Source: Escherichia phage vB_EcoM_TU01. Taken from it: DNA of 64,000 nt. The DNA lies in sequence record MZ560701; one strand, 5' to 3'. The notes under the pieces are model-generated. The model was not told the origin of the DNA, did not search any database, and saw only the letters and a list, made by a program, of their open reading frames with translations. Below, piece by piece: positions 442-34,697 of the stretch (the first letter of the stretch is position 1; the number at the start of each line of letters is the position of its first letter). The position numbers and the translations under genes are program-made.

Positions 442-589
442 GAAGCCGGGTCGCTACCGGCAAGTCGTCGGACTGATGTTCCCTGAGTAAGGACTGGTCT
501 TAATAAATCTTTATGATTTGTTAATATCCCCTTACATCACAGCAGAAACGGCGCANCGAATTATCGATTCGAGGAAATATCTTTGCCGT

Positions 590-705
590 AAGCCGAGTAG
601 CGTTTTTGACGGAACGTTCGGATATGGTCGAGATATGGCCTTTTAAAAATATTGAGTAGCGTCAACTACTTAATAACCGGGTTCAAATCCCGGCGTTTCG
701 TACAA
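590..705 (+). ncRNA. possible small stable RNA with tRNA-like T-arm (position analogous to T4 species 1/2 RNAs)
   Basis: Non-coding stretch 445-745; ccggg-ttcaaat-cccgg hairpin at 677-693; full fold not resolved. Confidence 0.25.
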
Positions 706-744
706 ACACTTACCTTAGTAGGTGGAAACCCCGACAAGGTATAT

Positions 745-775
745 AGCCCCTTCCGAAAGGTTGGGGCTTTTTTGT
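745..775 (+). terminator. rho-independent terminator
   Basis: agcccc...ggggct stem followed by T6; near-identical copy at 16915-16944. Confidence 0.7.
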
Positions 776-782
776 ATAAATA
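775..782 (+). promoter_or_regulatory. late promoter TATAAATA
   Basis: Exact TATAAATA about 35 nt upstream of ATG 818. Confidence 0.4.
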
Positions 783-817
783 TAGTAAACAATAAACCTA
801 CTTTCTAAGGACCATCG

Positions 818-1444
818 ATGTATACTTTTAATGAATTTTTAGCCGAAACGGAAGTAATCACCGAAGCCGGTGTACGTATGACAAAAGAGAAATGGCAAGC
901 TGCTTACGATGCTATTTCTGGTACAAAAACTAGTACAGAGTTTTTCAAAAACGTTCAAGCCATGTACGGTATCGACACTTCGAGCCAAAAAGAATATTAC
1001 AGAGCTTCTAAAGCATTCAAAGATATTGTTAGTGGTGGTGTTTCTGCTAAATCTGGTTCGCCTAAAGTAAAACCTGCTCCTACCATTCCTAAACCTGCGG
1101 CCCCTAAAGCAATAGCAAAACCTGAGCCTAAGCCTGAAGTAAAAGCAACTCCTAAAGCTCCTGCTCTTAAGTTTGATACTTCTAGCCTGGAAAAAAAATA
1201 TAAACAACTATCTTCGCTTGTTCGCGATATTGAATCCGATACATCTTCACTCGTTCGTGAATTCAATATTCTTCGCAATGGCCAACATATCAACAACCTT
1301 GATACCCCAGACCTTTATCGTCTTTATTTGACTATCGAAGGTTTGAAGTATACTCAACCACTTCACGATGCGATTAAAGAAAAACTTCGTCAGGCAGGTC
1401 GTTTGGCTGCTGACGCTGCTCAGTATGCAAAAACTCGTAAGTAA
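818..1444 (+). CDS. internal-protein-like protein with capsid-targeting-type N-terminus (MYTFNEFLAE) and Pro/Ala/Lys-rich linker
   Basis: ORF with aagga RBS; N-terminus matches the MKTYxEFxxE motif of T4 internal proteins; low-complexity KPAPTIPKPAAPK region. Confidence 0.6.
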   Translation: MYTFNEFLAETEVITEAGVRMTKEKWQAAYDAISGTKTSTEFFKNVQAMYGIDTSSQKEYYRASKAFKDIVSGGVSAKSGSPKVKPAPTIPKPAAPKAIAKPEPKPEVKATPKAPALKFDTSSLEKKYKQLSSLVRDIESDTSSLVREFNILRNGQHINNLDTPDLYRLYLTIEGLKYTQPLHDAIKEKLRQAGRLAADAAQYAKTRK

Positions 1445-1449
1445 AGAAT

Positions 1450-1470
1450 GGGGACTTCGGTCCCCTTTAG
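1450..1470 (+). terminator. UUCG-tetraloop hairpin (terminator or RNA-stability element)
   Basis: ggggac-ttcg-gtcccc then ttta; immediately after stop codon. Confidence 0.4.
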
Positions 1471-1496
1471 GGGGTCTATAACTTACTGAAAAAGTT

Positions 1497-1525
1497 GTTT
1501 ACTTCTTCCCTAGATGTGTTACTAT
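1497..1525 (+). promoter_or_regulatory. early promoter
   Basis: GTTTAC, 17 nt spacer, TACTAT, then ATAGACCTATCAA motif. Confidence 0.55.
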
Positions 1526-1553
1526 AGACCTATCAAAACATGAGGAGAATATT

Positions 1554-1859
1554 ATGAGTCTTTACACTGAACTGAATAAAAAATCTGAAGAATCTGCTGA
1601 AACTATTTTTAAAAACGTGCAAAAGCGTATTTTAGAAAAGATGTATAACACTGCAGCTAAAGGTGAAAAATCTTGCCGGTTTCCGATTAGGTGTTCTTCA
1701 GATTTATGCGCAAATACTATTGAATGGCTGGAAAGTGAAGGTCTTACGGTAGAGAAAAACCCGGCGACTTCTATTGACAGCGAATCATATATTAGTATTT
1801 CTTGGGATAAACCACGTATGAATGAAGGACACTACAAGTTGTTAAGTTGGAAAAATTAA
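1554..1859 (+). CDS. hypothetical protein (101 aa)
   Basis: ORF with gaggag RBS. Confidence 0.55.
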   Translation: MSLYTELNKKSEESAETIFKNVQKRILEKMYNTAAKGEKSCRFPIRCSSDLCANTIEWLESEGLTVEKNPATSIDSESYISISWDKPRMNEGHYKLLSWKN

Positions 1860-1869
1860 AAATAATGAT

Positions 1870-1898
1870 GTACAAGCACCAAGGATGGTGATACTATA
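1870..1898 (+). promoter_or_regulatory. early promoter
   Basis: GTACAA -35-like, 17 nt, TACTAT then AGACTTATCAA. Confidence 0.45.
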
Positions 1899-1927
1899 GA
1901 CTTATCAACTACAGAGGAGTAAACAAA

Positions 1928-2092
1928 ATGACTACTTTAATTATTTGGTTCGATGAAAATGAAGAAACATACTGTGTGAATATTGGTGAAAGTCCAATGC
2001 CTGAATTTGAATCCTCAGATAAAAACTCTGTTGTATCTTGGGCTGAAGGTTATAAAGCAGCTAAAGGTGACGTTGAAATAATTTACATCTAA
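1928..2092 (+). CDS. hypothetical small protein (54 aa)
   Basis: ORF below track cutoff; agaggag RBS before ATG 1928. Confidence 0.45.
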   Translation: MTTLIIWFDENEETYCVNIGESPMPEFESSDKNSVVSWAEGYKAAKGDVEIIYI

Positions 2093-2111
2093 GTAAGTTT
2101 ATGTTATAGTA
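2082..2111 (+). promoter_or_regulatory. early promoter
   Basis: TTTACA, 18 nt, TATAGT then AGTCCTATCAA. Confidence 0.4.
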
Positions 2112-2138
2112 GTCCTATCAAATCAAGAGGAAAACAAA

Positions 2139-2366
2139 ATGGCTACAGTTAGTATTGATGTCGTTGATTATGAATACACCGAAGAAGTTATTCGCAACCG
2201 TCACCCTGAAGTTCGTATCGATTCAGTCCAAGATTCCAAGTTCTGGACAACTGAGCTTAATCTGAGTGGTCCTTATGAAGCCGTTAAGAAGTTCATGGTT
2301 GAAGAATACTGNGAAGGCATGCACCCNGAAGACGCCGAGTTTTATGTCAATTTGATTAAAAAATAA
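2139..2366 (+). CDS. hypothetical protein (75 aa)
   Basis: ORF with agagga RBS. Confidence 0.5.
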   Translation: MATVSIDVVDYEYTEEVIRNRHPEVRIDSVQDSKFWTTELNLSGPYEAVKKFMVEEYXEGMHXEDAEFYVNLIKK

Positions 2367-2401
2367 TTTACAAACTCTTGAGAGCAGAGTATAATGCTCT
2401 C
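2367..2401 (+). promoter_or_regulatory. sigma70-type promoter TTTACA-17-TATAAT with inverted repeat gagagc/gctctc flanking the -10
   Basis: Consensus-like elements; 44-nt block 2371-2414 is repeated exactly at 32984-33027. Confidence 0.55.
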
Positions 2402-2436
2402 ATTGGATAATAAACCACCAATTGAAAGGTAATAAT

Positions 2437-3030
2437 ATGAACACACTGAAGAAACTTGTTGAATTCATCCGCACTAAACTGGGTACTGCTATGGCTAAAA
2501 ATCTGACTGTCGAAGAACAGTATAACGCAGCTGCAGATAAGTTGATTACCCAAATCAAAGAACTAAAAACGGCTTCTGTTAAATCTATTAATGAAGAAAA
2601 ACGTATTCGCGAACTTGTTAATGAAAAGAACAAGCAAGCNGCTTCTAAGGAACGTGAAATTCGTAAGCTCCTGGCTGAAGGACAAGATGTTACCATGCAT
2701 GCTAAGCTTGGTCTTCTGTATCGTCGAACTGCCGAACAACTTAATACAAAAGCTGACGGGTATGCCGCTATGCGAATTGAAATTGCTCGTAAGGTGGTTG
2801 AACTTGANGATGCTCGTCAGAATCTGGCAATCAAACTCGAATACATTCGTGAAACTCGAGCAGCCAATGCCCTTGGTATCTCTACGGCTGATGATGTAAT
2901 TGAAATCGCTGCACTGACTAAGGTTGATATCGAAGACACTCTGACTCGTGTTGAAACGTTCAATGGCACTCCAGCTGGTGTCGAAACCACTTCTGCNGAT
3001 GTACAAGAATATATTAACTCTTTGAAATAA
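2437..3030 (+). CDS. hypothetical protein (197 aa), coiled-coil-like
   Basis: ATG 2437 preceded by aaagg RBS; track start 2422 is TTG. Confidence 0.55.
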
Positions 3031-3038
3031 AATAATAC

Positions 3039-3061
3039 GGAGGACTCCGGTCCTCCTTTTG
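3039..3061 (+). terminator. rho-independent terminator
   Basis: ggaggac-tccg-gtcctcc then TTTT. Confidence 0.65.
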
Positions 3062-3079
3062 GATAATAAAGGAGTTAAC

Positions 3080-3676
3080 ATGCGAAACCAAAATAATGAT
3101 ATTGACTCAATGTTCGAAGAGTTCCGAAATAAGGTAAATCCACCTACGTCTTTAGTTGATTCATTACGATATGTTGCAACTGGACGTAAATGGTACTGGT
3201 CGTCTTCTTATGAGACAACTGAATATGCAAATAACCGAAAATCTTTATTAGCCCCAGGTATTATGATTCATGATATCGGAGCTATTGCTAAACTAGTTGC
3301 AGACCATGATATTAGATTCACTGATTTCGTTGCTCCTACATGGTCTGTTTGTTGTTTAAACACTGAATGGGACTATATCAGTGAACGTTCAGATGATTAN
3401 NTAGGCTTTAGAGATAAGCTTTTAAGGTCTAACATGTTTTATATTGATACNGAAGTTCTGGTCAATAATAAAAAATACTACTTCACTTTAATCGTCGATT
3501 CTGAAACTATGTATGAAGGCAAGCCTTTGCTTAAAAGAGTTGATGCTTTAAGTGCTATTGATGCGCTTTATGAAACCATGGTTGTTAGTCCTAATTTCAC
3601 TAACAATTTAATCCTTGAGCAATTTATTATGGAATGTAGAGAATATGTCAAAGCCAACCCTNTACATGCCAATTAA
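3080..3676 (+). CDS. hypothetical protein (198 aa)
   Basis: ATG 3080 after aaggag RBS. Confidence 0.55.
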   Translation: MRNQNNDIDSMFEEFRNKVNPPTSLVDSLRYVATGRKWYWSSSYETTEYANNRKSLLAPGIMIHDIGAIAKLVADHDIRFTDFVAPTWSVCCLNTEWDYISERSDDXXGFRDKLLRSNMFYIDXEVLVNNKKYYFTLIVDSETMYEGKPLLKRVDALSAIDALYETMVVSPNFTNNLILEQFIMECREYVKANPXHAN

Positions 3677-4040
3677 GCCCTGGGCNTANGAATACAAACG
3701 TAAATTAATCCCAAATGAAGTACTATTTGGCCCTATTTTAGCTTTAGCATTTTTAATCTTTATGATTATAGGAGCTGTTTTAGATTCTAGTGAAGTTATA
3801 TCGTCTGATGCAGNGTTTTTACTTATTATACCCGGGTCGTTTATTNTACCNTTTTTATTAATGCCTATTAACTGGGTGGGATATTGGNACCAAGGACGTC
3901 ATCACAGAGCCCGATTAAGAGAATGGAAAGTTCAGTGCGCAAAAGCCCAAGCTCAGTATGATGAAGCTGTTAAAAAGTATGAATANGAAGAAGCTATGGA
4001 ATTCGTTAAGGAAATAAGANGCAAAAGCCTCAACTCTTAA
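3666..4040 (+). CDS. hypothetical membrane protein
   Basis: Hydrophobic segments; start uncertain (ATG 3615, 3645 or 3666). Confidence 0.4.
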   Translation: MPIKPWXXEYKRKLIPNEVLFGPILALAFLIFMIIGAVLDSSEVISSDAXFLLIIPGSFIXXFLLMPINWVGYWXQGRHHRARLREWKVQCAKAQAQYDEAVKKYEXEEAMEFVKEIRXKSLNS

Positions 4041-4081
4041 CCGTACGGCCTTCTCTTGGTGAGAACATTCTAATTTTTATT

Positions 4082-4378
4082 ATGAGTATTGGCATGGGAT
4101 TTGCCTTTGGATTAGTTGGATTTCTTATTGACGGCGTTGTGTTAGGATTTATAGGGAACACTGGTGGATTCACAGACCAATGGCAGGACTTACGGTATAC
4201 CCAAGCCTTTGCATCCATCGCATCATTTTGTACTGTAGTCTATTTTTACTACGATTTTATAAACCATAACAAGAAAAATAAAAAGGTTTACGCTTCTCAA
4301 ATGATTAGTTATAATGAACTCCTAGCTAGACGTGAAAATGAAACAATCGAAAACTTTATTAAGGAATGTAGAAAATGA
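4082..4378 (+). CDS. hypothetical membrane protein (98 aa)
   Basis: Hydrophobic N-terminal half; ORF. Confidence 0.5.
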   Translation: MSIGMGFAFGLVGFLIDGVVLGFIGNTGGFTDQWQDLRYTQAFASIASFCTVVYFYYDFINHNKKNKKVYASQMISYNELLARRENETIENFIKECRK

Positions 4379-4680
4379 GTAAGATTATTGAAATTAAAGT
4401 ACCAGAGTTTAANGATGCCAAATCCGCTTCAGATGCAATTTATAAACTTCTGAATCAAGCTGAACGTATCGAAGAAGAAGCAACAAAGATCGCAGACCAA
4501 TATGCCGTATCATTTTCTGTAGGTGATTATGGTAGCGGTCGTACTTATTATCCTAAGGGTGAAATCGTATCCCAGTGGATGAAAAATGAAATTGAAAATA
4601 ATGGTGGCGATGTTAAGCGTGAAGGTAATGGTTACGTTATTACTGAAGGTGCTTGGGTTTCGTCTTCTGCGTTGTGCTAA
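4375..4680 (+). CDS. small protein, paralog family member 1 (C-terminal EGAWVSSSALC)
   Basis: Tandem ORF; conserved C-terminal tail shared with the next two ORFs. Confidence 0.55.
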   Translation: MSKIIEIKVPEFXDAKSASDAIYKLLNQAERIEEEATKIADQYAVSFSVGDYGSGRTYYPKGEIVSQWMKNEIENNGGDVKREGNGYVITEGAWVSSSALC

Positions 4681-4689
4681 GGAATCATT

Positions 4690-4962
4690 ATGTCTAAAGA
4701 ACAAACCGAACTGGCTGAAGCTGTAGCAAAAATCTATGCAGCTATTGAGGCTGCCAAAGAAATTGCTGATAAACAAAACACAACATTCGACTTGTATCCA
4801 GCTTATGGTATGGGTGGAACATATCATTCACCCGGACAGCTTAAAGCCGATCTTGAACGTTGTACAAAAAACGGCTATGCTGAATGGGCNGACGTTTACC
4901 AATACGACTACAACCTNAGCCTCGAAACNGGNGGTTGGATTGCATCTTCTCACACTTGCTAA
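4690..4962 (+). CDS. small protein, paralog family member 2 (C-terminal GGWIASSHTC)
   Basis: Tandem ORF, shared C-terminal motif. Confidence 0.55.
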   Translation: MSKEQTELAEAVAKIYAAIEAAKEIADKQNTTFDLYPAYGMGGTYHSPGQLKADLERCTKNGYAEWXDVYQYDYNXSLEXXGWIASSHTC

Positions 4963-4971
4963 GGAAACCAT

Positions 4972-5169
4972 ATGTCTCGTGAATTAGATTGTGCTGTACG
5001 TACGGCAGTAGCTGCTCTGGAAAACCTGTTCCAAATTGCAACAGAAGAACGCGAAGAAGTTACATTATGGATTGAAGATAACGCAGGNCTGAATCTCCAG
5101 AACGCAATCTCGTTATCAAATAATAGTATTACTGTTCAAGGCTGGGTATCNTCTAGTTATTCTTGCTAA
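4972..5169 (+). CDS. small protein, paralog family member 3 (C-terminal QGWVxSSYSC)
   Basis: Tandem ORF, shared C-terminal motif. Confidence 0.55.
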   Translation: MSRELDCAVRTAVAALENLFQIATEEREEVTLWIEDNAXLNLQNAISLSNNSITVQGWVXSSYSC

Positions 5170-5173
5170 AACA

Positions 5174-5203
5174 GTTTACAACAAGATAGGGCTATGTTAT
5201 AGT
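5174..5203 (+). promoter_or_regulatory. early promoter
   Basis: GTTTAC, 18 nt, TATAGT then AGnCCTATCAA. Confidence 0.5.
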
Positions 5204-5231
5204 AGNCCTATCAAATTAAATGGAGTCCACA

Positions 5232-5471
5232 ATGATTTATTANGAAAGTATTGGAACCNAAGTGGTTGCTAAAACCATTACTCGTGAAAAGTTTGCAAAG
5301 ATATTCGATATGCGTTATAAAAAATCTGAACACAAAGGCATCCGNTTCGAAGATGCACACTGNACAATTTGCCCTTATAATGAAGACATAAANGGTACAA
5401 TCGTTCCATTGGTAGAGGCTTCACACGATGACCTCTGGGATGAATATAATATCGCATGTCGTGAAATTTAA
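5232..5471 (+). CDS. hypothetical protein (79 aa)
   Basis: ATG 5232 after tggag RBS. Confidence 0.45.
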   Translation: MIYXESIGTXVVAKTITREKFAKIFDMRYKKSEHKGIXFEDAHXTICPYNEDIXGTIVPLVEASHDDLWDEYNIACREI

Positions 5472-5495
5472 GTTAATTAATCCGAGGAAAATATT

Positions 5496-6452
5496 ATGAT
5501 GTTAGTTATTGGTTCTCGTGCACTTCACTATCATGGCCTTATTGATTCTAACGCTATCAAAAATAGTGATTGGGACTTTATTGCGGACCAAGGTTCTTGG
5601 AATGCATTCAAAAATCAAATGATGGGTGTATATGTTCACCAAGATAACCCTGATGTCCAAGTTTTCAAATGCTTCCATAANGGACGCGAAACTCATTTTG
5701 AAGCATATATTGTTCCGGCAATCACTAATGTCCGTGAATTAGTAGGTGAACTCACTCCTGAAGATTTCACGTCTTCTTATGACCTTTTAAAATACGCCAA
5801 GAAAAATTTGACTAAAGACCGTTTGAACGGGTTTTACTGGGCAACTCCTGAGATATGTCTTGCAATTAAGATGTCTCATCGTTTCAAGAAAAATAATCCA
5901 TTCTTTTTAAAGACTATGAACCATATTCAGTATCTTCGTGGTAAAGGTGTTACACTGAACGATGAACTTACTGAAATTATGCTGAAACGCCAGAAAGAAA
6001 CCTTGAACTATGCTCACCCAGTTCTTGACACTTCTAAAAGTGCGTTCTTTAAAGATGANATCTATACATATGACCATGATACTATTCATGAAGCCATTGC
6101 ACTAACAGACCGTCCAGCGTATACATTTTATATGAAAGACGGTTCTGAAGTCATGACCTCACGCGAGAAGTTCGAATCGTTACCAGAAATGGTCAAATTG
6201 GCCGGTGTATATGAAGAATCATGTGTACTAGCATTAGAACGTTCTCAGATTCCTAATGACTTTAAAATTAACCCTGAAGCCAGTTTTATGATGGCATTAG
6301 AAAAAGTCTGCACAAGCATCACCTCNGGTTGGTTCCGTGAATACGCCTGGGAAAACTACAGCAAAGTAGTAAGTATGTACCAAAGCTTAGGACACGACGA
6401 TTACGTCAAACGTTTCAAACAAAATTTNCATATGGTAAAACCTTTCAAATAA
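5496..6452 (+). CDS. hypothetical protein (318 aa)
   Basis: Long ORF with gaggaaa RBS; no motif recognised. Confidence 0.6.
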   Translation: MMLVIGSRALHYHGLIDSNAIKNSDWDFIADQGSWNAFKNQMMGVYVHQDNPDVQVFKCFHXGRETHFEAYIVPAITNVRELVGELTPEDFTSSYDLLKYAKKNLTKDRLNGFYWATPEICLAIKMSHRFKKNNPFFLKTMNHIQYLRGKGVTLNDELTEIMLKRQKETLNYAHPVLDTSKSAFFKDXIYTYDHDTIHEAIALTDRPAYTFYMKDGSEVMTSREKFESLPEMVKLAGVYEESCVLALERSQIPNDFKINPEASFMMALEKVCTSITXGWFREYAWENYSKVVSMYQSLGHDDYVKRFKQNXHMVKPFK

Positions 6453-6464
6453 TTTCACAAAACT

Positions 6465-6494
6465 GTTTACAAGGTCTGTAGTTGTTGATACTAT
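6465..6494 (+). promoter_or_regulatory. early promoter
   Basis: GTTTAC, 18 nt, TACTAT then AGACCTATCAA. Confidence 0.55.
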
Positions 6495-6532
6495 AGACCT
6501 ATCAAAACAAATGAGTGAATGGAGATATAAAA

Positions 6533-6733
6533 ATGACTACTTTGAATAAACGTTTCGGTAAAGCTAAACCTGGTTGTGCAGCAGAACGTCGTTATGTTTT
6601 CGCTCAGTTAGAAGATGTAGAGTATCAGATTAATCAAGTTCACATTACTGGTATCGAGCCTATGTGTGGCCTTGAAGCTCTTCGTGAAGTTCGTGATGGG
6701 TATCGTCGTGACATCGAAGAAATGTCAAAATAA
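6533..6733 (+). CDS. hypothetical protein (66 aa)
   Basis: ATG 6533 after ggag RBS. Confidence 0.45.
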   Translation: MTTLNKRFGKAKPGCAAERRYVFAQLEDVEYQINQVHITGIEPMCGLEALREVRDGYRRDIEEMSK

Positions 6734-6763
6734 GTGTACAAACTNATAGGNCTATGTTATAGT
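6734..6763 (+). promoter_or_regulatory. early promoter
   Basis: GTGTAC, 18 nt, TATAGT then AGTCCTATnAA. Confidence 0.45.
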
Positions 6764-17835: not shown

Positions 17836-18012
17836 ACCCGTGAACAAGCTAATAAATTGATGGACCTTATCCATGACTTACGTGAAGCCGATTCAGATTT
17901 GAATGATGTAGCTTATCATGCGGTAAATGATAACGGAGACTTTTATGAAAATCAGGTTGATGCTTGCCAGAATGCTTTGGTGAATTTTGTTGAAACTTTA
18001 ATTGGTGAATAA
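17832..18012 (+). CDS. hypothetical protein (59 aa)
   Basis: ORF. Confidence 0.45.
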
Positions 18013-18013
18013 T

Positions 18014-18544
18014 ATGAAAACTGTAATTGAAACAACCGAGTTGTTTGGTGATTTATGTATCGAAAAACGTGGNNATGTGTATGTTCTGACACAAGAAGAT
18101 GATGCTGCTACTATTCTTCCTATGGAACTGGACAAGATTTTGAAACTCAATCCACCCGGCCATGCATCTGTAATTAACATTAATGAAGACCTTCAAGTTC
18201 GTTTTTATCACGGACTTTATAGTGGGGTTAATATCGAAACTGAAGACGAATGTTTTTCTATTAATAATTGGAAAACATTCGTCGCTAAAGTGAAAGAATT
18301 CATGGAATCTGAAACAGCCAAAAAGGCCAAACTTCAATGGGCTAAATGCCGTAATGCTTTTATTACAAATCAGGACCGCCCTGACTATACAACAGTCCTA
18401 GGCGTTAATCCTTCGTATGAAGATGGTGATGTCGTAGTTATTCGTCAAATTGATGACCTTCGTCAACATATCATTACATTAGACAAAGATGAAGCAGTTG
18501 CTCTTAAAGCTTATCTTGATTCTATTATCCCGACTTTGAAATAA
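18014..18544 (+). CDS. hypothetical protein (176 aa)
   Basis: ORF. Confidence 0.55.
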   Translation: MKTVIETTELFGDLCIEKRXXVYVLTQEDDAATILPMELDKILKLNPPGHASVININEDLQVRFYHGLYSGVNIETEDECFSINNWKTFVAKVKEFMESETAKKAKLQWAKCRNAFITNQDRPDYTTVLGVNPSYEDGDVVVIRQIDDLRQHIITLDKDEAVALKAYLDSIIPTLK

Positions 18545-18553
18545 GGAATTATT

Positions 18554-19027
18554 ATGATTATCAATGAAAACTCTTGGCACTTTAAAATTTATGCCGCGTT
18601 CAATAGTACATGGAATCGTCCGAAAACGTTGTGTGCTTATTTTTGGAAAACGTTAATCCCNGTATTGGCTGTTTCAATTATTGGATTTGCGATTTTAGCA
18701 GGTGCCGTAATCATTGGCCAGGAAATTTTAACTANATTCTTTGTTTTTAGCAGTCTATGGACATTAGTTCCGGCCTCAATTGGTGTAGGCATTTTAANNG
18801 TAGCAGTCATGGCTCTTATTGCTGTCGGGTTGGTAATTGGCCCGTCTTGGTTGTTAGACAAATATAACGACAGAAAATATTATAAAGAAATTGAGTTCAT
18901 TGCACAAAACCAAGAACGAATTAAAAATGGACTTGAGCCTATTGAACGTAAGAAATCATTAATAGGTGAATACCTTAAAGCTCGTAAAGAAAAAGTCTGT
19001 CCTACTCTTGAATATAAGGCTAAATGA
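18554..19027 (+). CDS. hypothetical membrane protein (157 aa)
   Basis: Multiple hydrophobic segments. Confidence 0.5.
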   Translation: MIINENSWHFKIYAAFNSTWNRPKTLCAYFWKTLIXVLAVSIIGFAILAGAVIIGQEILTXFFVFSSLWTLVPASIGVGILXVAVMALIAVGLVIGPSWLLDKYNDRKYYKEIEFIAQNQERIKNGLEPIERKKSLIGEYLKARKEKVCPTLEYKAK

Positions 19028-20013
19028 TGAAAACAATTATGAAGGCTTACTTTGGTAGTCACCTTTATGGAACGTCTACTCCTGAATCTGACGTCGATTT
19101 TAAAGAAATTTATGTCCCTCATGCTCGTGATATTTTGACCGGTAACGTTAAAGAACATATGAGCAAGAACACGAATAACACATCTTCTAAGAACACAAAA
19201 GACGACGTGGACCATGAGTTGTATAGTCTCAAATATTTCTTTAAACTAGCTGCAGATGGTGAAACCGTCGCATTAGATATGCTTCACACTCCACAAAGTC
19301 TAGTAGTTAAATCTGATTTGCCTGANGTNTGGAAGTATATTCAAGACAACAGGTCTCGTTTCTATACTACTAACATGAAATCTTATTTAGGGTATGTCCG
19401 TAAGCAAGCTTCTAAATACGGTGTCAAGGGTTCTCGACTGGCTGTTCTTCGACAAGCCCTTAAACGTTCTAATGAATGGGGACAATACTTTGATAATGGT
19501 GCAGTAATTCGTTTATCACATATGAAGAATGTTCTGCCTGTAGGTGAATTTGCTTCGTGGGTTGAAACCGAAAACGAGAAAACAGGTAAGCAAACATTCT
19601 ATAATCTGTTAGACCGTAAATTCCAAGACACATTAACCAATAAAGAGTTCAATGCCATCCTTGTTAAACTAGAAGAGAACTATGGCGAACGTGCTCGTAA
19701 GGCAGAAGCTAACGAAGGTATTGACTGGAAAGCATTGAGTCATGCATGTCGTGGTGGACTTCAATTATTGGAAATTTACAAAACAGGCGACCTGGTTTAC
19801 CCACTTCAGGATGCTCCATTTATTCTCGATGTTAAGCTTGGTAAACATACGTTTAAAACTGTACAAGAATTCCTAGAAGATATCGTTGACCAAGTTGAAC
19901 ATGCGTCAGAACAAGCTGCCAAGAACGGTATGCAACAAAAAGTAGATATGAGTTTCTGGGATGACTTCCTTGAACAAGTCTATCTCGAAAATCATAATTC
20001 TTACTATAAATAA
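19024..20013 (+). CDS. nucleotidyltransferase-fold protein (Pol-beta superfamily motif GS-x11-DVD)
   Basis: N-terminal GSHLYGTSTPESDVDF plus downstream acidic residue (VALDM). Confidence 0.55.
   Translation: MMKTIMKAYFGSHLYGTSTPESDVDFKEIYVPHARDILTGNVKEHMSKNTNNTSSKNTKDDVDHELYSLKYFFKLAADGETVALDMLHTPQSLVVKSDLPXXWKYIQDNRSRFYTTNMKSYLGYVRKQASKYGVKGSRLAVLRQALKRSNEWGQYFDNGAVIRLSHMKNVLPVGEFASWVETENEKTGKQTFYNLLDRKFQDTLTNKEFNAILVKLEENYGERARKAEANEGIDWKALSHACRGGLQLLEIYKTGDLVYPLQDAPFILDVKLGKHTFKTVQEFLEDIVDQVEHASEQAAKNGMQQKVDMSFWDDFLEQVYLENHNSYYK
20005..20012 (+). promoter_or_regulatory. possible late promoter TATAAATA
   Basis: Exact motif but it overlaps the stop codon region of the upstream ORF; may be coincidental. 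Confidence 0.25.
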
Positions 20014-20044
20014 GTAGATAAATAACCCTTAACTTGAGGTAAAT

Positions 20045-20311
20045 ATGAAAAAATTAGTAATTGGTTTATTCGCAGTAATGATGGCATTCTCTGTTGGTGC
20101 TACCACGGGTGCAGGAGCTGGTGGTAACCAGTCTTCTGGGCCTTCTAATGGTTCTGTAAATGCATCACATTCTCAGGGTATTGAGAACATTAAATCAAGC
20201 TATATTAATAGCACGGCCGGACAAGCAACTGAAGCATGGTCAAAGGGCCGAGTAGTTACTCGCTCCGTATTCTGTGATATGCCTAATTATGTTGCTAAGT
20301 GCGATAAGTAA
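20045..20311 (+). CDS. secreted Gly/Ser-rich protein (88 aa)
   Basis: Signal peptide MKKLVIGLFAVMMAFSVGA. Confidence 0.5.
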   Translation: MKKLVIGLFAVMMAFSVGATTGAGAGGNQSSGPSNGSVNASHSQGIENIKSSYINSTAGQATEAWSKGRVVTRSVFCDMPNYVAKCDK

Positions 20312-20315
20312 ATGT

Positions 20316-20336
20316 GGGGACCTTCGGGTCCCTTTA
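20316..20336 (+). terminator. UUCG-tetraloop hairpin
   Basis: gggacc-ttcg-ggtccc then ttta. Confidence 0.4.
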
Positions 20337-20363
20337 GGGGGTTAAAATATTTTTAAAAAAGTA

Positions 20364-20393
20364 GTGTACATGCTTTTAGGATATGTTATTATA
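20364..20393 (+). promoter_or_regulatory. early promoter
   Basis: GTGTAC, 18 nt, TATTAT then AGACCTATCGAA. Confidence 0.5.
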
Positions 20394-20430
20394 GACCTAT
20401 CGAAACGAAATGAGTAAATTGGAGAATAAA

Positions 20431-21411
20431 ATGTTCAACGTTCAAATCAAAAAAGGTATCTATCGTAATAACGAAATCTCTGGTTCTTATGTTGCCACAA
20501 AGACCTGGTTCCCGGCAAAGCTTAATCCTGAATGTTCCCACTTAGGTGATGGTAAAATTTTCGTTATGATTGATGGTTCTGAACGTGGAGTATGGGTCTT
20601 CAAATCAGACATCGTAATGGAAGGAGTTGAGACATCTCCAGTTGCAGTTGTTGAAAGCACTGAAGATATGAAAACTCGTATCAACAAACGCTTTAAAGTA
20701 ATGAACATGATGACGAATGGCATTATCGATGGCAAAATTCGTTCACTCATTATTTCAGGTGCTGCTGGTATTGGTAAGACGTATTCTCTGGATAAAGCAC
20801 TTAATAATGCTAATGATAACGGTTTCATCAAATACAAAAGCATTAATGGTAAAATCTCTGGTATTGGCCTTTACGAACAACTTTGGCTCAACCGTGATGC
20901 AGATAGCGTTCTCTTAATCGACGACGTTGACGTATTCTCAGATATGGACATCTTGAACCTTCTTAAAGCAGCATTAGATACCGGAGATAAACGCAAAGTT
21001 TGTTGGAGCACTGCGTCATCTTATCTCGATGATAAGGGTATTGATAAAGAATTTGAGTTTGAAGGTACTATCGTTTTCATTACAAACGTTGATATCGATA
21101 AAGAGTTAGAACGCGGTTCGAAACTTGCTCCACACCTTCAAGCTTTAGTATCTCGTTCAGTGTATCTCGACCTTGGAGTACACTCTAATGAAGAGATTAT
21201 GGTTCGAGTTGAAGATGTAATATTATCTACTGACATGATGCAGAAACGTGGTCTGACGGATGCAGAAACGTATAAAGCATTGTCCTGGATGAAGGCTAAC
21301 GTATCTCGTCTTCGCAATGTATCATTACGTACGGCTCTTTATGTAGCAGATTTTATTTCAACTGATAAAGACGGTTGGGAGGAAATCTCCGAAGTAACTT
21401 TACTGAAATAA
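20431..21411 (+). CDS. AAA+/P-loop ATPase
   Basis: Walker A GAAGIGKT, Walker B LLIDDVD; ATG 20431 after ggag RBS. Confidence 0.65.
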   Translation: MFNVQIKKGIYRNNEISGSYVATKTWFPAKLNPECSHLGDGKIFVMIDGSERGVWVFKSDIVMEGVETSPVAVVESTEDMKTRINKRFKVMNMMTNGIIDGKIRSLIISGAAGIGKTYSLDKALNNANDNGFIKYKSINGKISGIGLYEQLWLNRDADSVLLIDDVDVFSDMDILNLLKAALDTGDKRKVCWSTASSYLDDKGIDKEFEFEGTIVFITNVDIDKELERGSKLAPHLQALVSRSVYLDLGVHSNEEIMVRVEDVILSTDMMQKRGLTDAETYKALSWMKANVSRLRNVSLRTALYVADFISTDKDGWEEISEVTLLK

Positions 21412-21549
21412 GCTTATAGGAAGTTCTGAGGTAACAAAAGCCATAAAGATGAATAATCATATGGCTTACCTCAAAGAAGGACACCAGGAACCTACTGAGG
21501 GCATAGAAATATTTAAAAATAATGATGTACAAATCAAAGAGGATATGTT

Positions 21550-21837
21550 ATGGATTTTATGCAAAAAATTAAAGCCGCAGTCGAACTGTATGCTCATCGT
21601 ATGGTTAGTTCTACGATGCAATATAGCGAGGAGGTTCGCCAGGACTCTTCCTTGAAAGGAAAAACTAAAGCCTTAATTACCTTAGACCGTCTGCAAAAGA
21701 ATGCCATAGAGTTGTTCCAGTACGACAAGGATGCATATAAGAAAGAACAGGAAGAGAAACTTAAATCCGAAAAATTACAGAAAATNCCGAAGTCGGTTTG
21801 GTTCAGTGGAAAAAATACCGAAAAAAGTTTCTTTTAG
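21550..21837 (+). CDS. hypothetical protein (95 aa)
   Basis: ORF. Confidence 0.45.
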   Translation: MDFMQKIKAAVELYAHRMVSSTMQYSEEVRQDSSLKGKTKALITLDRLQKNAIELFQYDKDAYKKEQEEKLKSEKLQKXPKSVWFSGKNTEKSFF

Positions 21838-21839
21838 TT

Positions 21840-21868
21840 GTTTACAAGGTCTATGGTTATGTTATTAT
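21840..21868 (+). promoter_or_regulatory. early promoter
   Basis: GTTTAC, 17 nt, TATTAT then AGACCTATCAA. Confidence 0.55.
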
Positions 21869-21895
21869 AGACCTATCAACTACTGGAGGTAAAAC

Positions 21896-22423
21896 ATGAA
21901 CGCTAAAGATATTTTCAACCTGGTAAATTATAACGACGGTAAATTTAAATCTGAAGCACAAAGCAAGTTCTTTAATGACGTTGCTTATGGTAATGAGATT
22001 ACCGTGGACGGAGGTCAGATTTTCAAATCTCGCTGGAATTGGATTGCTATCATCGATTCAGTTGGAATTGTAGAAGTCTACAAAAACACTAACAAAAAAC
22101 GTACATTATTCTGGTCTCGTGAAACTAACGAGCAGTACAAAAAGGATAAAGCATCTCGTTTATCCAAAGTAACCCAGGAAGATATCGAGTTTATCAAGAA
22201 AGATATCGAGATGTACGAAAATTTAATCGCTGAAGACCAGGCAGTACTCGATAAGTTTGATGAAATTAAAGCTTCTCGTGAAATCCCTGACTTCATGAAA
22301 GAAACAGTAAACGAACGATACGCTCTCACTTCAGAACGTATTGCAAACTATACAAAACAGAAAGCAGAACGTATTAGTACTCTTCGGAAATTTGAAGAAC
22401 GTTTAAAGACGGTTCACGCATAA
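21896..22423 (+). CDS. hypothetical protein (175 aa)
   Basis: ORF with ggaggt RBS. Confidence 0.55.
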   Translation: MNAKDIFNLVNYNDGKFKSEAQSKFFNDVAYGNEITVDGGQIFKSRWNWIAIIDSVGIVEVYKNTNKKRTLFWSRETNEQYKKDKASRLSKVTQEDIEFIKKDIEMYENLIAEDQAVLDKFDEIKASREIPDFMKETVNERYALTSERIANYTKQKAERISTLRKFEERLKTVHA

Positions 22424-22450
22424 ACGCTTTACCCAAGGACGGGTTATAAT
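22423..22450 (+). promoter_or_regulatory. middle-type promoter (MotA-box-like GCTTTA, about 13 nt, TATAAT)
   Basis: Box and spacing match the T4 middle-promoter architecture. Confidence 0.4.
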
Positions 22451-22485
22451 GGTTTTGAGTTCCAATTCAATCTGAGGAAATAGTT

Positions 22486-23481
22486 ATGAGCATTACATCT
22501 GATGCGGTAAAACATGAAATTAACGGTTTATGTGCTTCACAGATTAAAGTGTGGTTTAAAGACCATAATGATCGCAGAGCACTTAATTATGAACAAATTG
22601 CTATCCAAGTTCATCAATTACTGACTAGTAAATTTGATTTTCATATGCCGTCTGAAATCTATACTAATCTGCCGCGAGCGCTTATTAAAGCGTGTAAAGG
22701 TTACGGAAAATCAATGGCTGATGGAATCTTCAGCGCGCTGAATAAACTTAACGTTCTGTCGATGATTAACTCTAACAACATTCTGCGTAATCTAGGACGT
22801 ACTGATTTGTTCGGTCGTGAACAGTGTAAAATGCCTTTGAAATGGATTGTTGCTCATCTTAACGAGAACCAAACACGTTTTATGGCCGTATCAGCACGCT
22901 TACAAATGGGCCTAGATCGTCAGATGAACTTTAAAACTCATCCACGTTATTCAGGTTCAACAGACTTTTATAAATGTGAGCTTCAAAAGGTTGCAGGTAA
23001 AACTGTCTTAGTAGTTCGTGTAACGTTTGAAGGACGACGTCAAGGATATTTTGACCTAATCGGCTCTGGTCTTAAACATTGTGGATTTATTGACGAAGTT
23101 GATATCAAGCGAGACGGCATTGGATACCGTATTGGATATGTTTGTACTCTTAAAGAAGAGATTTCAGGACCAGCACCAGGACTAAAAGACGTTAGATATA
23201 AAGACGAGCTCGTTGAAGAAATAAAAGAAGTTGAATATGATATCAACCAAGAAGATGCTCTTAAAGACCTTATTGATGAACTAAACCAAGACGTTATTCC
23301 GGTTCAGAAATTTGAATCAAAACATGCTGAGCAAATCAAATACTTTGAAGCTTTGATTAACGAACTTAATGTAACTATTCAACAGACTGACGATGAAATC
23401 TCACGATTAGCAGGCTTAAACGGTAAAAATAAAACAGAACGAGCTAATCTTATTCAAGTAGTAAAACTTCTTAAGGAATGA
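22486..23481 (+). CDS. hypothetical protein (331 aa) with C-terminal coiled coil
   Basis: Long ORF; heptad-like C-terminus. Confidence 0.6.
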   Translation: MSITSDAVKHEINGLCASQIKVWFKDHNDRRALNYEQIAIQVHQLLTSKFDFHMPSEIYTNLPRALIKACKGYGKSMADGIFSALNKLNVLSMINSNNILRNLGRTDLFGREQCKMPLKWIVAHLNENQTRFMAVSARLQMGLDRQMNFKTHPRYSGSTDFYKCELQKVAGKTVLVVRVTFEGRRQGYFDLIGSGLKHCGFIDEVDIKRDGIGYRIGYVCTLKEEISGPAPGLKDVRYKDELVEEIKEVEYDINQEDALKDLIDELNQDVIPVQKFESKHAEQIKYFEALINELNVTIQQTDDEISRLAGLNGKNKTERANLIQVVKLLKE

Positions 23482-30618: not shown

Positions 30619-30834
30619 ATGTGTAAATTTCGTAAAGGTTTAGCTGATTTTCTTACAACTGTAACGTTCTTTTTGTTTATGGCAGTTGGAGCTATTTTTC
30701 TTATTCCTTTTACTGTTGTATTTTTCGTGATTAGTTTAATTTCTCCTGAAAAGGGTTTATCCTCCAGCGAATTCAATGAACGTTTGGACAAAATTACTAA
30801 TAAACTGAATTCTGTTCTTGATAAAAAGGNTTAA
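30619..30834 (+). CDS. hypothetical membrane protein (71 aa)
   Basis: Hydrophobic N-terminal half. Confidence 0.45.
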   Translation: MCKFRKGLADFLTTVTFFLFMAVGAIFLIPFTVVFFVISLISPEKGLSSSEFNERLDKITNKLNSVLDKKX

Positions 30835-30836
30835 TT

Positions 30837-31154
30837 ATGATTAGTTTTGANCGNTATGTGGTAGAGAGTTGGAATGGTTTTGATATGTTCGGTAATGACT
30901 ATTATTTCTATGAATGTAGTCTAAATCCTAGTTTTTGGGCNGGACGTGAACGNGAACTCGAAGAAATTAATAATCGTGCTGAATTGTTAGGTGAATTACC
31001 TACGGTTTATTTTACCTTTGATGCATCTGGATTTGTTATCCAGGTTTATTTTCCTGAAGAAAATTCTGGNGATGATTCTGTTAANCCGCCATATTGGGCT
31101 TATCAAGGAATTATTTCTCGTGGAACAAAACTCGAACTTAAAGAACAAGATTGA
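30837..31154 (+). CDS. hypothetical protein (105 aa)
   Basis: ORF. Confidence 0.45.
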   Translation: MISFXXYVVESWNGFDMFGNDYYFYECSLNPSFWXGREXELEEINNRAELLGELPTVYFTFDASGFVIQVYFPEENSXDDSVXPPYWAYQGIISRGTKLELKEQD

Positions 31155-31443
31155 AATTTATGGCATCCCTGAAGAAGTAGGACGTTGTCCAGGATGTTAT
31201 ACTGTTACAAAACTTTTAAAGGAGCTCAATGCTCCTTATACATTTTATAAAGTCCTCACTAATAATGGTAAGATTGAATATGACCGTCCTTTAATCGTAT
31301 CTCTTGCTAAACGTGCAGGATTCACTTCACTTAATATTCGTTATCCTGTCATATTTTTAAATGATAAGAAACAAAAGAATATTGCAGAGTTTAAAAAGTC
31401 CTTGATTTCATTAGGATATGACTCTGATATCATAGAAGATTGA
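31120..31443 (+). CDS. glutaredoxin-like protein (NrdH-like, CPGC)
   Basis: KIEIYGIPEEVGRCPGCY thioredoxin-fold start; no in-frame ATG, GTG 31120 assumed. Confidence 0.5.
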   Translation: MEQNSNLKNKIEIYGIPEEVGRCPGCYTVTKLLKELNAPYTFYKVLTNNGKIEYDRPLIVSLAKRAGFTSLNIRYPVIFLNDKKQKNIAEFKKSLISLGYDSDIIED

Positions 31444-31468
31444 CCAGGTGCCGCCTGGTCTTCTTTAT
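31442..31468 (+). terminator. rho-independent terminator
   Basis: gaccagg-tgccg-cctggtc then T-rich. Confidence 0.55.
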
Positions 31469-31551
31469 CTCATTTCTAATATAATCCATTGGAATCTTCA
31501 CTTCACTATCTCCTTGTGCCCCTCTCAAATCGAAAATATTTTCATAAAACA

Positions 31552-31580
31552 GTTTACATCCTCAATAGATGTGTTAAGAT
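31552..31580 (+). promoter_or_regulatory. early promoter
   Basis: GTTTAC, 17 nt, TAAGAT. Confidence 0.45.
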
Positions 31581-31608
31581 TAAACCATCTACTATAGAGG
31601 AAAATAAA

Positions 31609-31791
31609 ATGACAATTGAAGATAAAGAAATTAAGGTCGACCAGTACTATTCTGTCAACGGTAATGCAGTACAGATAACCAGAGTTTCAAGCCTGGATGT
31701 TTGGTACCGTTCAATCAAATATCCAGAAATTGGTGAAATGCTTTGTGACCGTGGTATCTTCTGTTCAATTGCGAAGGAAATTAAGCCATGA
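31609..31791 (+). CDS. hypothetical protein (60 aa)
   Basis: ORF with agagga RBS. Confidence 0.45.
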   Translation: MTIEDKEIKVDQYYSVNGNAVQITRVSSLDVWYRSIKYPEIGEMLCDRGIFCSIAKEIKP

Positions 31792-33602: not shown

Positions 33603-33868
33603 AATTAACTCGAATCAGTATAACTGAAGAAAAGCTGGGCGAATTTTATGTTGACGAATACATGAAAGTCACGTATTTTCCATTCGTTAAAGGTGTTGGT
33701 TTTTGGGAAACTCATGTATCTCAATTAAACGAAGGCGACTATAACGAAACACATGAGAACTTTTTAGATTTTCTTTATAATGCCGGTCTTACTGAGCTTT
33801 ATATCGATATCCATGAGTTCAAACGTTTAATGGAAAAAGTGTTTCAGGCTTATTGTTTGCTCCGATAG
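33599..33868 (+). CDS. hypothetical protein (89 aa)
   Basis: ORF. Confidence 0.45.
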   Translation: MKLTRISITEEKLGEFYVDEYMKVTYFPFVKGVGFWETHVSQLNEGDYNETHENFLDFLYNAGLTELYIDIHEFKRLMEKVFQAYCLLR

Positions 33869-33940
33869 TATCTCGTGCTTTAAGATAGGTCTCTAAATAT
33901 TATGATATAATAGACCTATGAATTGAGCCAAGAGGTACTT

Positions 33941-34498
33941 ATGACTGAACAAAAACCTAAAAATAACTATGTGAATAATAAAGAGCTTCTCGCCGCTATA
34001 ATCGAGTGGAAAAAGGAGCTCTTAAATAATAAAGACCCAAACAAAATTATTCGTCAGAATGATACCATCGGTTTAGCAATTATGCTTATCGCCGAAGGCC
34101 TGTCCAAACGTTTCAACTTTTCAGGATATACCCAGTCTTGGAAGCAGGAGATGATTGCAGATGGGATTGAAGCCTCTATTAAGGGACTTCATAATTTCGA
34201 CGAAACTAAGTACAATAACCCACATGCATACATAACTCGAGCTTGTTTTAATGCTTTTGTCCAACGTATCAAAAAAGAACGTAAGGAAGTTGCAAAGAAA
34301 TATAGTTACTTCGTTCATAATGTCTACGACAGTCATGACGATGATATGGTAGCGTTGGTAGATGAAACGTTTATTCAAGACATCTACGATAAAATGACGC
34401 ATTATGAAGAATCCGCTTATAAAGCTCCTGGGGCTGAAAAGAAGGAAGTTGTTAGCGATTCGCCTAGTTTGGATTTTTTATATGAGGATGACAATTGA
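33941..34498 (+). CDS. 55: late-transcription sigma factor gp55
   Basis: [51 protein letters not shown] closely matches T4 gp55. Confidence 0.95.
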
Positions 34499-34697
34499 CA
34501 TCTCTAACTACTTAGAAGAACCTTTTGACGAAGCAATCCCTTATTTGGTAAAACTGTTGGGTCGTGAATTTAAAATTAATTTTGACATCGACCCTTTGAA
34601 CCCACATGACGTGTCATTTTCGATAAATGGGACTCCGGTTGAGTATGAGTTCTGTATTGAAGAGGACGGACGTTTTTATTTTAATTTAATGAGATAA
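34482..34697 (+). CDS. hypothetical protein
   Basis: ORF overlapping the end of gene 55. Confidence 0.4.

Follow-up and report, generated by a model that had tools for sequence, protein, structure and literature searches.

A predicted long-subtype RlaP nucleotidyltransferase, NrdC.11, of a T-even phage and its candidate role in RNA repair

Phages can counter a host defence by repairing RNA; the textbook example is bacteriophage T4, whose Pnkp and Rnl1 act against PrrC by mending the cleaved tRNA-Lys. This pathway alone cannot undo the damage of nucleases that also remove a nucleotide. The idea that the lost nucleotide is restored has been published before (Burroughs and Aravind 2016, as related by the papers citing it; Iyer et al. 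2021, PMC7824862; Carruthers et al. 2025, preprint 10.64898/2025.12.29.696909). RlaP, the RNA repair pathway DNA polymerase beta family (PF10127), was described as the most prevalent nucleotidyltransferase (NTase) of jumbo phages, with a distribution mirroring that of RNA ligases, and was predicted to restore nucleotides removed by RloC-type nucleases before ligation (Iyer et al. 2021, PMC7824862). Two RlaPs of Pseudomonas, encoded between rtcB and rtcA, were found to add one or two nucleoside monophosphates (NMPs), or deoxynucleoside monophosphates, to the 3'-OH of RNA (Carruthers, Fatma and Huang, preprint 10.64898/2025.12.29.696909). These enzymes required a free 3'-OH, preferred Mn2+ or Co2+ and mimics of cleaved tRNA, did not act on DNA or proteins, and partly rescued the aminoacylation of a tRNA missing one anticodon-loop nucleotide. 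The same preprint placed NrdC.11 of T4 in the RlaP family and gave its function as unknown. Here we describe the NrdC.11 homologue encoded in a stretch of 64,000 nucleotides from Escherichia phage vB_EcoM_TU01 (sequence record MZ560701), the whole of which we call the window. We regard its membership of the RlaP family of Pol-beta NTases as practically certain, and we put the probability at about 0.6 that, by analogy with the assayed enzymes, it adds nucleotides to RNA 3' ends and in this way serves RNA repair or counter-defence.

With PF10127 the window protein scores 49.8 bits, above the gathering cut-off of 23 (E = 4.9e-13), the match spanning residues 4-152 and only profile positions 20-148 of 249. 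Among the PHROGs it matches phrog_388, 'nucleotidyltransferase' (2.6e-125). Its N-terminal sequence, MMKTIMKAYFGSHLYGTSTPESDVDF, contains F10-G11-S12, ten further residues and D23-V24-D25-F26, which fits the Pol-beta signature hG[GS]-x(9-13)-[DE]h[DE]h. The gene and the elements of the protein discussed below are the following (aa, amino acids).

19024..20013, + strand: nrdC.11 homologue, a predicted long-subtype RlaP (PF10127) NTase of Pol-beta fold, 329 aa
19054..19098, + strand: NTase signature, G11-S12 (19054-19059) and D23-V24-D25 (19090-19098), aligning with the GS / DxD of canonical RlaP by hhalign
19204..19212, + strand: D61-V62-D63, at the predicted beta-strand 62-68 of the AlphaFold2 model; D63 aligns with the invariant Asp of short RlaPs
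19276..19278, + strand: D85 in a DMLH motif, the fourth conserved acidic residue, aligning with the invariant Glu of short RlaPs
19426..20010, + strand: C-terminal half (about residues 135-329), predicted to be helical, with an insertion of three beta-strands at 177-201 and the motif YGxRA...DWKAxSHAxR, specific to the long subtype

The initial homologue search returned near-identical T-even sequences only. For diversity we used a distant Vibrio-phage query and a 50%-cluster search, in which a scan of 1.84 billion cluster representatives gave 3306 relatives at E <= 1e-3, with 753 at E <= 1e-30, mostly full-length proteins of ~320 aa. The conservation alignment consisted of the window protein and 78 relatives at 34-52% identity, and 78 of these 79 sequences match PF10127. 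G11, S12, S22, D23, D25, N57, Y132, R223, K236, R243 and G273 are invariant throughout, and conservation at D61, D63 and D85 is 90% or higher. V62-D63-H64 has the form h[DE]h, and D63 is the likely third catalytic carboxylate. The sequence-only reading of this DNA, which was made before any database search, had recognised the Pol-beta signature in the 329-aa protein, and the invariance of GS and DxD in so diverse an alignment takes it beyond a chance motif. That reading had named the absence of the second and third catalytic acidic residues as grounds for abandoning the assignment; since these further acids are conserved, the assignment stands.

The start codon of nrdC.11 shares bases with the stop codon of the membrane-protein gene before it (ATGA), so that nrdC.11 is probably co-translated and co-transcribed with the upstream genes. 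In some records the annotated protein begins at the second ATG (19027) and has 328 aa. Single N bases are scattered over the window and give X residues in many open reading frames (ORFs) between 17299 and 23900; the frames examined are unbroken. In NrdC.11 two of the codons for L-P-X-X-W contain such a base (19326 and 19330).

An AlphaFold2 model built from the alignment reached a mean predicted local distance difference test score (pLDDT) of 93.9 and a predicted template modelling score of 0.84, and its C-terminal half was also confident. The model contains the minimal NTase alpha/beta fold, followed by a helical C-terminal region that ends in a long helix. Foldseek searches of the PDB with this model returned weak matches only (E of at least 2.5e-3, TM score ~0.3), led by KNTase/ANT(4'), 3c18, Hailong HalB, LinB, Tam41, AadA and MNT. 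PDB sequence searches, with single proteins as well as with family profiles of long NrdC.11 and short RlaP proteins, gave nothing relevant; the crystal structure of PfRlaP that the preprint describes (10.64898/2025.12.29.696909) was not among the entries searched. As modelled, NrdC.11 is a KNTase/HalB-like two-domain NTase. A profile and structure search, proposed with the sequence-only reading, has therefore placed the protein in an NTase family, PF10127, with a KNTase/HalB-like predicted fold.

We compared NrdC.11 with the short or canonical RlaPs, by which we mean PF10127 proteins of ~250-270 aa such as those encoded in RtcB operons of P. fluorescens and P. aeruginosa. In characterised RlaPs the NTase domain is followed by a C-terminal helical domain, whose terminal helix packs back on the NTase domain. 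The two groups align by hhalign with a probability of 93.6%, limited to NrdC.11 residues 1 to ~131, and within this segment the GS, DxD, D63 and D85 of NrdC.11 fall on invariant positions of the short proteins. For the C-terminal half (~135-329) there was no Pfam match and no similarity to short RlaP detectable by hhalign. The two types also differ in their distribution. NrdC.11-type proteins occur in 1558 phage records, mostly of Straboviridae and nearly always as a single copy, and short RlaPs in 78 phage records; among the matches listed for the latter there is no T-even phage, and most come from jumbo phages of ~260-350 kb, phiKZ and its relatives. Likewise, a sequence similarity network put T4 NrdC.11 in RlaP cluster 5, as opposed to cluster 1a for the canonical RlaPs (preprint 10.64898/2025.12.29.696909). 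Judged from these comparisons, NrdC.11 represents a distinct long RlaP subtype.

Long RlaPs are also found outside phages. A genome scan with the family alignment yielded 80 bacterial and archaeal loci, whose neighbouring ORFs were called, clustered and analysed with phmmer and Pfam; the cellular homologues are full-length, with 33-51% identity. Downstream sequence of 800 bp or more was available at 71 loci; 22 of them carry a second, shorter PF10127 gene (~255-275 aa), and in 19 of these 22 it lies directly downstream on the same strand (long-short pairs at L015, L019, L023, L027, L031, L035, L045, L051, L058, L063, L067, L073, L076, L081, L087, L089 and others). The short partners match the whole PF10127 profile (E = 1e-51 to 1e-73) and are thus of the canonical type. 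This arrangement suggests a bacterial cassette of two NTases, which may form a heteromer or divide the work between them. Apparent long-short fusion ORFs at L070 and L074 were rejected as ORF-calling artefacts in high-GC DNA, the two domains lying in different frames.

Some of these loci carry genes of known RNA-repair operons. Within 5 kb of the long RlaP gene we found RtcB at 7 of the 80 loci and Ro60/TROVE at 4, which together make 9 loci. An uncultured Nitrosospira contig (CAADGK010000054.1, locus L031) carries at 558-6746 a complete operon in the order Ro60, YrlA, RtcB, RtcA, long RlaP and short RlaP.

558-2180: Ro60/TROVE
2398-2509: YrlA Y-RNA-like RNA (Rfam RF02553, 80.2 bits against a gathering score of 69)
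2712-3941: RtcB
3958-4974: RtcA (PF01137, 4.3e-80)
5004-5975: long RlaP, about 40% identical to the window protein
5979-6746: short RlaP

A comparable association was observed in a phage that is not T4-like. In the 85-kb Rheinheimera phage vB_RspM_Barba19A (L006:2247-4900), a gene for a CCA-adding tRNA nucleotidyltransferase and one for a 139-aa 'hydrolase' without a Pfam match precede the NrdC.11 homologue, a three-gene cluster that suggests a tRNA end repair module. The long subtype and the pairing of long and short RlaPs in bacterial RNA-repair operons are the mildly new points of this analysis. We tentatively extend them to a more specific proposal, which we consider possible but rather doubtful: that long RlaPs form a functionally distinct class, usually encoded as a separate partner just upstream of the short RlaP in bacterial Ro60/Y-RNA/RtcB/RtcA operons and acting alone in T-even phages, with a C-terminal domain perhaps specific for the nucleotide excised by RloC. 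If so, NrdC.11 would complete the classical tRNA-repair counter-defence of T4 as its missing third enzyme, beside Pnkp and Rnl1.

The steps that we propose for NrdC.11 are drawn by analogy from the short RlaPs that have been assayed and from the repair of PrrC-cleaved tRNA-Lys by T4 Pnkp and Rnl1. A host anticodon nuclease of the RloC type would cleave a tRNA and trim a nucleotide from it, and Pnkp (PseT) would take off the 2',3'-cyclic phosphate or 3'-phosphate. NrdC.11 would then transfer one or a few NMPs from nucleoside triphosphates (NTPs) to the 3'-OH of the broken RNA, most plausibly of tRNA halves, with D23, D25 and D63 holding two divalent metals for catalysis. Finally, Rnl1 (RnlA) would reseal the break, and a fraction of the products would be functional tRNA. 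We infer the RNA substrate, the number of nucleotides, the role in tRNA repair and the cooperation with PseT and RnlA from the same analogy. NrdC.11 would accordingly be a conditional and dispensable accessory of counter-defence or RNA repair; T4 remains viable when its nrdC.11-mobD.3 segment is deleted (PMC9825161). If NrdC.11 fills the nucleotide-restoring gap, this would explain why a dispensable NTase has been retained in more than 1500 sequenced T4-like phages. The sequence-only reading had left the function open, from second-messenger synthesis to protein or RNA modification and RNA repair; the field is narrower now, given the PF10127 placement, the citation of T4 NrdC.11 as a family member and the bacterial members that add one or two NMPs to the 3'-OH of RNA.

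Several points weigh against the proposed role in RNA repair. We know of no phenotype of nrdC.11 mutants. The closest solved fold is that of HalB, which makes DNA oligomers and does not repair RNA. The C-terminal half, which would shape the choice of substrate, is without detectable homology to canonical RlaP; this divergent domain could confer a different acceptor on the long subtype and is the main uncertainty of the RNA-repair assignment. At about 70 of the 80 cellular loci, neither RtcB nor Ro60 lies within 5 kb of the long RlaP. The presumed partner enzymes are encoded far away in the related Mosigvirus JS09 (RnlA at 30626-31750 and PseT at 33704-34603), ~80 kb from nrdC.11, and the window shows no operonic link to them. 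Moreover, the RlaP assays on which the analogy is built concern the short type only and come from one preprint pending peer review (10.64898/2025.12.29.696909).

Some of these points fit a different use of the same chemistry. NrdC.11 might be an RNA 3'-tailing enzyme outside repair, one that needs neither Pnkp nor Rnl1 and that, for example, marks host or phage transcripts for decay or stability, or touches up phage tRNAs at their 3' ends. The assayed RlaPs discriminate little between NTPs or between RNA sequences, and in total RNA they label rRNA and full-length tRNAs (preprint 10.64898/2025.12.29.696909). The lack of linkage between nrdC.11 and rnlA/pseT in phage would agree with such a role, as would a phage tRNA gene at the start of the window and the clustering of the Barba19A homologue with the gene of a CCA-adding enzyme, itself a worker on tRNA 3' ends. 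However, the long-subtype homologues associate with repair operons containing RtcB, RtcA, Ro60 and YrlA, and cleaved-tRNA mimics are the preferred substrates of the assayed RlaPs (preprint 10.64898/2025.12.29.696909). We therefore take tailing outside repair to be unlikely, though deserving of serious attention.

The transfer of a nucleotide to a protein or a small molecule, as in AMPylation (compare DrrA, GlnE, MntA and the aminoglycoside NTases), could for instance inactivate a host defence protein. We consider it quite improbable for NrdC.11, because the Pfam assignment is RlaP and short RlaPs did not label E. coli proteins (preprint 10.64898/2025.12.29.696909). The identity of NrdC.11 as an MntA antitoxin was rejected separately: the match to the NCBIfam model NF047752 is 13.4 bits against a cut-off of 60, and the genes flanking nrdC.11 encode a membrane protein and an 88-aa secreted protein, neither of them a HEPN toxin.

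Synthesis of a free nucleotide signal or decoy that subverts a host defence appears more improbable still. The product would be either cyclic, as made by the CD-NTases (cGAS/DncV-like nucleotidyltransferases), or an oligodeoxyadenylate, as made by HalB, and the defence in question might be, for example, the cyclic-oligonucleotide-based antiphage signalling system (CBASS) or Hailong. Neither structural match list for the NrdC.11 model contained a structure of cGAS, DncV, a CD-NTase or OAS, and the PADLOC defence models gave no match for the NTase; a CD-NTase, cGAS/DncV-like or OAS-type cyclic-nucleotide synthase was rejected on these grounds. The HalB comparison is closer in fold and is taken up below. 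PADLOC also gave no match for the 88-aa protein and only a chance-level match to SspF for the ATPase encoded farther downstream, and we rejected a defence-system interpretation of the region on this result.

Finally, that NrdC.11, the 88-aa secreted protein and the AAA+ ATPase NrdC.10 form one three-gene system, as the title of the sequence-only reading had implied, is scarcely credible. In Mosigvirus the three genes do lie side by side on one strand, as do nrdC.11 and nrdC.10 in Tequatrovirus without the 88-aa gene, but a hairpin and a separate, conserved promoter-like element divide nrdC.10 from the upstream genes, and the distribution of the genes already largely refutes such a unit. The 88-aa gene is absent from RB51 and is found in only 102 phage records, out of about 1500 with nrdC.11; the NTase has 1558 records and the ATPase 1311. 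In the distant phages Aeh1, Va3, K471 and GAP32, the NTase and ATPase genes are not neighbours: Aeh1 and Va3 have nrdC.11 without a neighbouring nrdC.10, and in GAP32 the genes around the NrdC.10 homologue encode methyltransferase, HNH and membrane proteins. A NrdC.10 homologue is present at none of the 80 cellular loci with a NrdC.11-type gene. NrdC.10 would thus be an independently transcribed AAA+ ATPase and not a functional partner of NrdC.11.

The genes of the region are themselves well known. Bases 18000-22500 have 98% DNA identity to Escherichia phages JN02 and GADS24 and 97.5% to Mosigvirus JS09; the source phage is a Mosigvirus, an RB69/JS09-like T-even coliphage. The JS09 annotation has the same ORFs in the same order: mobD.1, RB69ORF104c (membrane protein), nrdC.11 ('nucleotidyltransferase'), VR7ORF099c (hypothetical), nrdC.10, nrdC.9 and nrdC.8. 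The region consists of the T-even accessory genes nrdC.11 and nrdC.10, with a Mosigvirus-restricted gene for the 88-aa secreted protein inserted between them. As early as 2006, nrdC.11 orthologues were matched to the COG3541 nucleotidyltransferases and nrdC.10 orthologues to AAA ATPases (Nolan et al., PMC1524935). The gene pair with these two assignments is already known and widely annotated, and finding it here is ordinary. Many GenBank phage records name nrdC.11 or nrdC.10 orthologues 'thioredoxin' or 'glutaredoxin nrdC'. The 'thioredoxin' labels look like an error propagated from the nrdC.x gene names; neither NrdC.11 nor NrdC.10 showed a thioredoxin fold or match. Upstream of the region, 18002-18544 encodes a mobD.1 or y05I-like putative transcription factor (PF24449, E = 1.8e-39; PF24448, E = 2.2e-19), and a tRNA-Arg(TCT) gene occupies positions 2-78 of the window. 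The features downstream of nrdC.11 are as follows.

20045..20311, + strand: gene for an 88-aa predicted secreted protein (phrog_2243), a lineage-specific insertion
20316..20336, + strand: hairpin GGGGACC-UUCG-GGUCCC with a T-rich tail; a terminator-like site from the scan overlaps it (stem 20327-20343)
20365..20392, + strand: promoter-like element TGTACA-16-TATTAT with an upstream TG and an A/T-rich tract, 9 of 12 consensus matches
20431..21411, + strand: nrdC.10 homologue, an AAA+ ATPase of 326 aa (phrog_1250); the mechanical ORF starts at 20410
20758..20781, + strand: Walker A GAAGIGKT, ORF residues 117-124; G117, G120, G122 and K123 invariant in 55 sequences
20920..20925, + strand: D171-D172 of Walker B LLIDDVD, invariant in 55 sequences

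The 88-aa protein begins with MKKLVIGLFAVMMAFSVGA-TT, an N terminus that resembles a Sec-type signal peptide when judged by eye, and continues with a Gly/Ser/Asn-rich middle and a C-terminal Cys pair. All 102 phage records of phrog_2243 are from Escherichia or Shigella phages, Mosigvirus-like ones and their relatives. A 'secreted protein' after the NTase had been predicted from the sequence; the ORF and its signal-like N terminus are present, but it does not belong to a conserved module. The protein also has a sub-threshold NCBIfam match to the BLB8/JUQZ-1 model (E = 0.016, 15.5 bits against 40), whose short name JUQZ_fam_ocin suggests a bacteriocin-type family; being below threshold, this match was not used as evidence.

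About 400-420 bp separate the stop of the NTase gene from the start of the ATPase gene, in agreement with the spacing of ~400 bp given earlier. In Tequatrovirus RB51, nrdC.11 is directly followed by the hairpin and then by nrdC.10, without the 88-aa gene. The RB51 hairpin (L003:5015-5045) reads GGGAGCC-TTCG-GGCTCCC, as against GGGGACC/GGTCCC in the window, so that the stem has changed in a compensatory manner, and the T-run that follows is stronger in RB51. The UUCG hairpin is likely an intrinsic terminator or an RNA-stabilising hairpin that closes the transcript of nrdC.11 and the 88-aa ORF. The UUCG hairpin, the T-run, the A/T-rich tract, GT(G/T)TACA-16/17-TA(T/C)TAT, the Shine-Dalgarno sequence and the ATG are conserved in this order between the window (Mosigvirus) and RB51, where the promoter element takes the form GTTTACA-17-TACTAT. 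T4 early promoters have GTTTAC at -35, TAtAAT at -10 and an A-rich upstream tract. The promoter-like element of nrdC.10 could plausibly be of the T4 early class, because it is conserved across genera and not because of the consensus promoter scan, which by itself is not significant (14 sites versus 13.5 expected by chance). The early promoter that the sequence-only reading had assigned to the ATPase thus gains from the comparison with RB51 and nothing from the scan.

The start of nrdC.10 is almost certainly the ATG at 20431 and not that at 20410, because the PHROG match begins at residue 8, JS09 is annotated from the same ATG and GGAG-N7-ATG is kept in RB51. RB51 lacks the upstream ATG equivalent to 20410, yet keeps TTGGAGAATAAAATG exactly. 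Besides the Walker motifs, N226 (sensor 1), R249 and R307 of NrdC.10 are invariant in the 55 sequences. The model (pLDDT 94) shows an N-terminal beta-rich domain (residues 9-71) without a Pfam match, an AAA+ core and a lid. Foldseek found 163 PDB chains at E <= 1e-3, all of them AAA+, with ClpA, RuvB, NSF/Sec18, ORC/Cdc6, RFC and BrxL at E = 1e-5 to 1e-6; Cdc6 and RFC also appear as weak profile matches (E = 0.002-0.006). The AAA+ ATPase with clear Walker A and B motifs was therefore correctly recognised from the sequence alone, as was the NTase; from the same reading, the observation itself holds, and what falls away is the three-gene module. In Vibrio phage K471 (L007:3989-5002), a NrdC.10 homologue lies in a replication block in the order sliding clamp, clamp loader, regA, dUTPase, NrdC.10 and DNA helicase, a position that hints at a role of the ATPase in DNA metabolism.

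Among known AAA+ types, NrdC.10 shares the Walker A and B motifs, sensor 1 and the conserved arginines with the initiator/clamp-loader and RuvB/ClpA ATPases. It resembles many types and cannot be assigned to a specific clade, and its N-terminal beta-rich domain is unique to it. For NrdC.11, KNTase (1kny), LinB (3jyy) and ANT(3'')(9) have in common with it an N-terminal Pol-beta NTase core and a C-terminal helical domain. Hailong HalB (PDB 9dbh), an NTase that synthesises oligodeoxyadenylate, is only 15% identical to NrdC.11, and no profile-level sequence match between the two was found. HalB is without the long C-terminal domain of NrdC.11, and no HalA-like channel gene lies near nrdC.11; membership of the HalB family was not found. 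T4 NrdC.11 (tk.-11, 'putative 38.9 kDa protein') and its Straboviridae orthologues are the same gene as that of the window, which shares the T4 position between mobD.1/ORF104c and nrdC.10 and encodes a protein with 77-78% amino-acid identity to Tequatrovirus orthologues. Nothing of substance separates it from the T4 gene, and Mosigvirus has the extra 88-aa gene after nrdC.11. To the published idea of nucleotide restoration, our analysis adds that the phage enzyme probably belongs to a separate long subtype, and that the AAA+ ATPase and the secreted protein would stand outside the NrdC.11 system. With the canonical short RlaPs, NrdC.11 shares the Pfam family, the GS / DxD / D constellation and a conserved acidic residue after the NTase core, and both types associate with RtcB-type RNA-repair operons, whereas NrdC.11 is ~60-70 residues longer and carries the C-terminal beta insertion and the DWKAxSHAxR motif.

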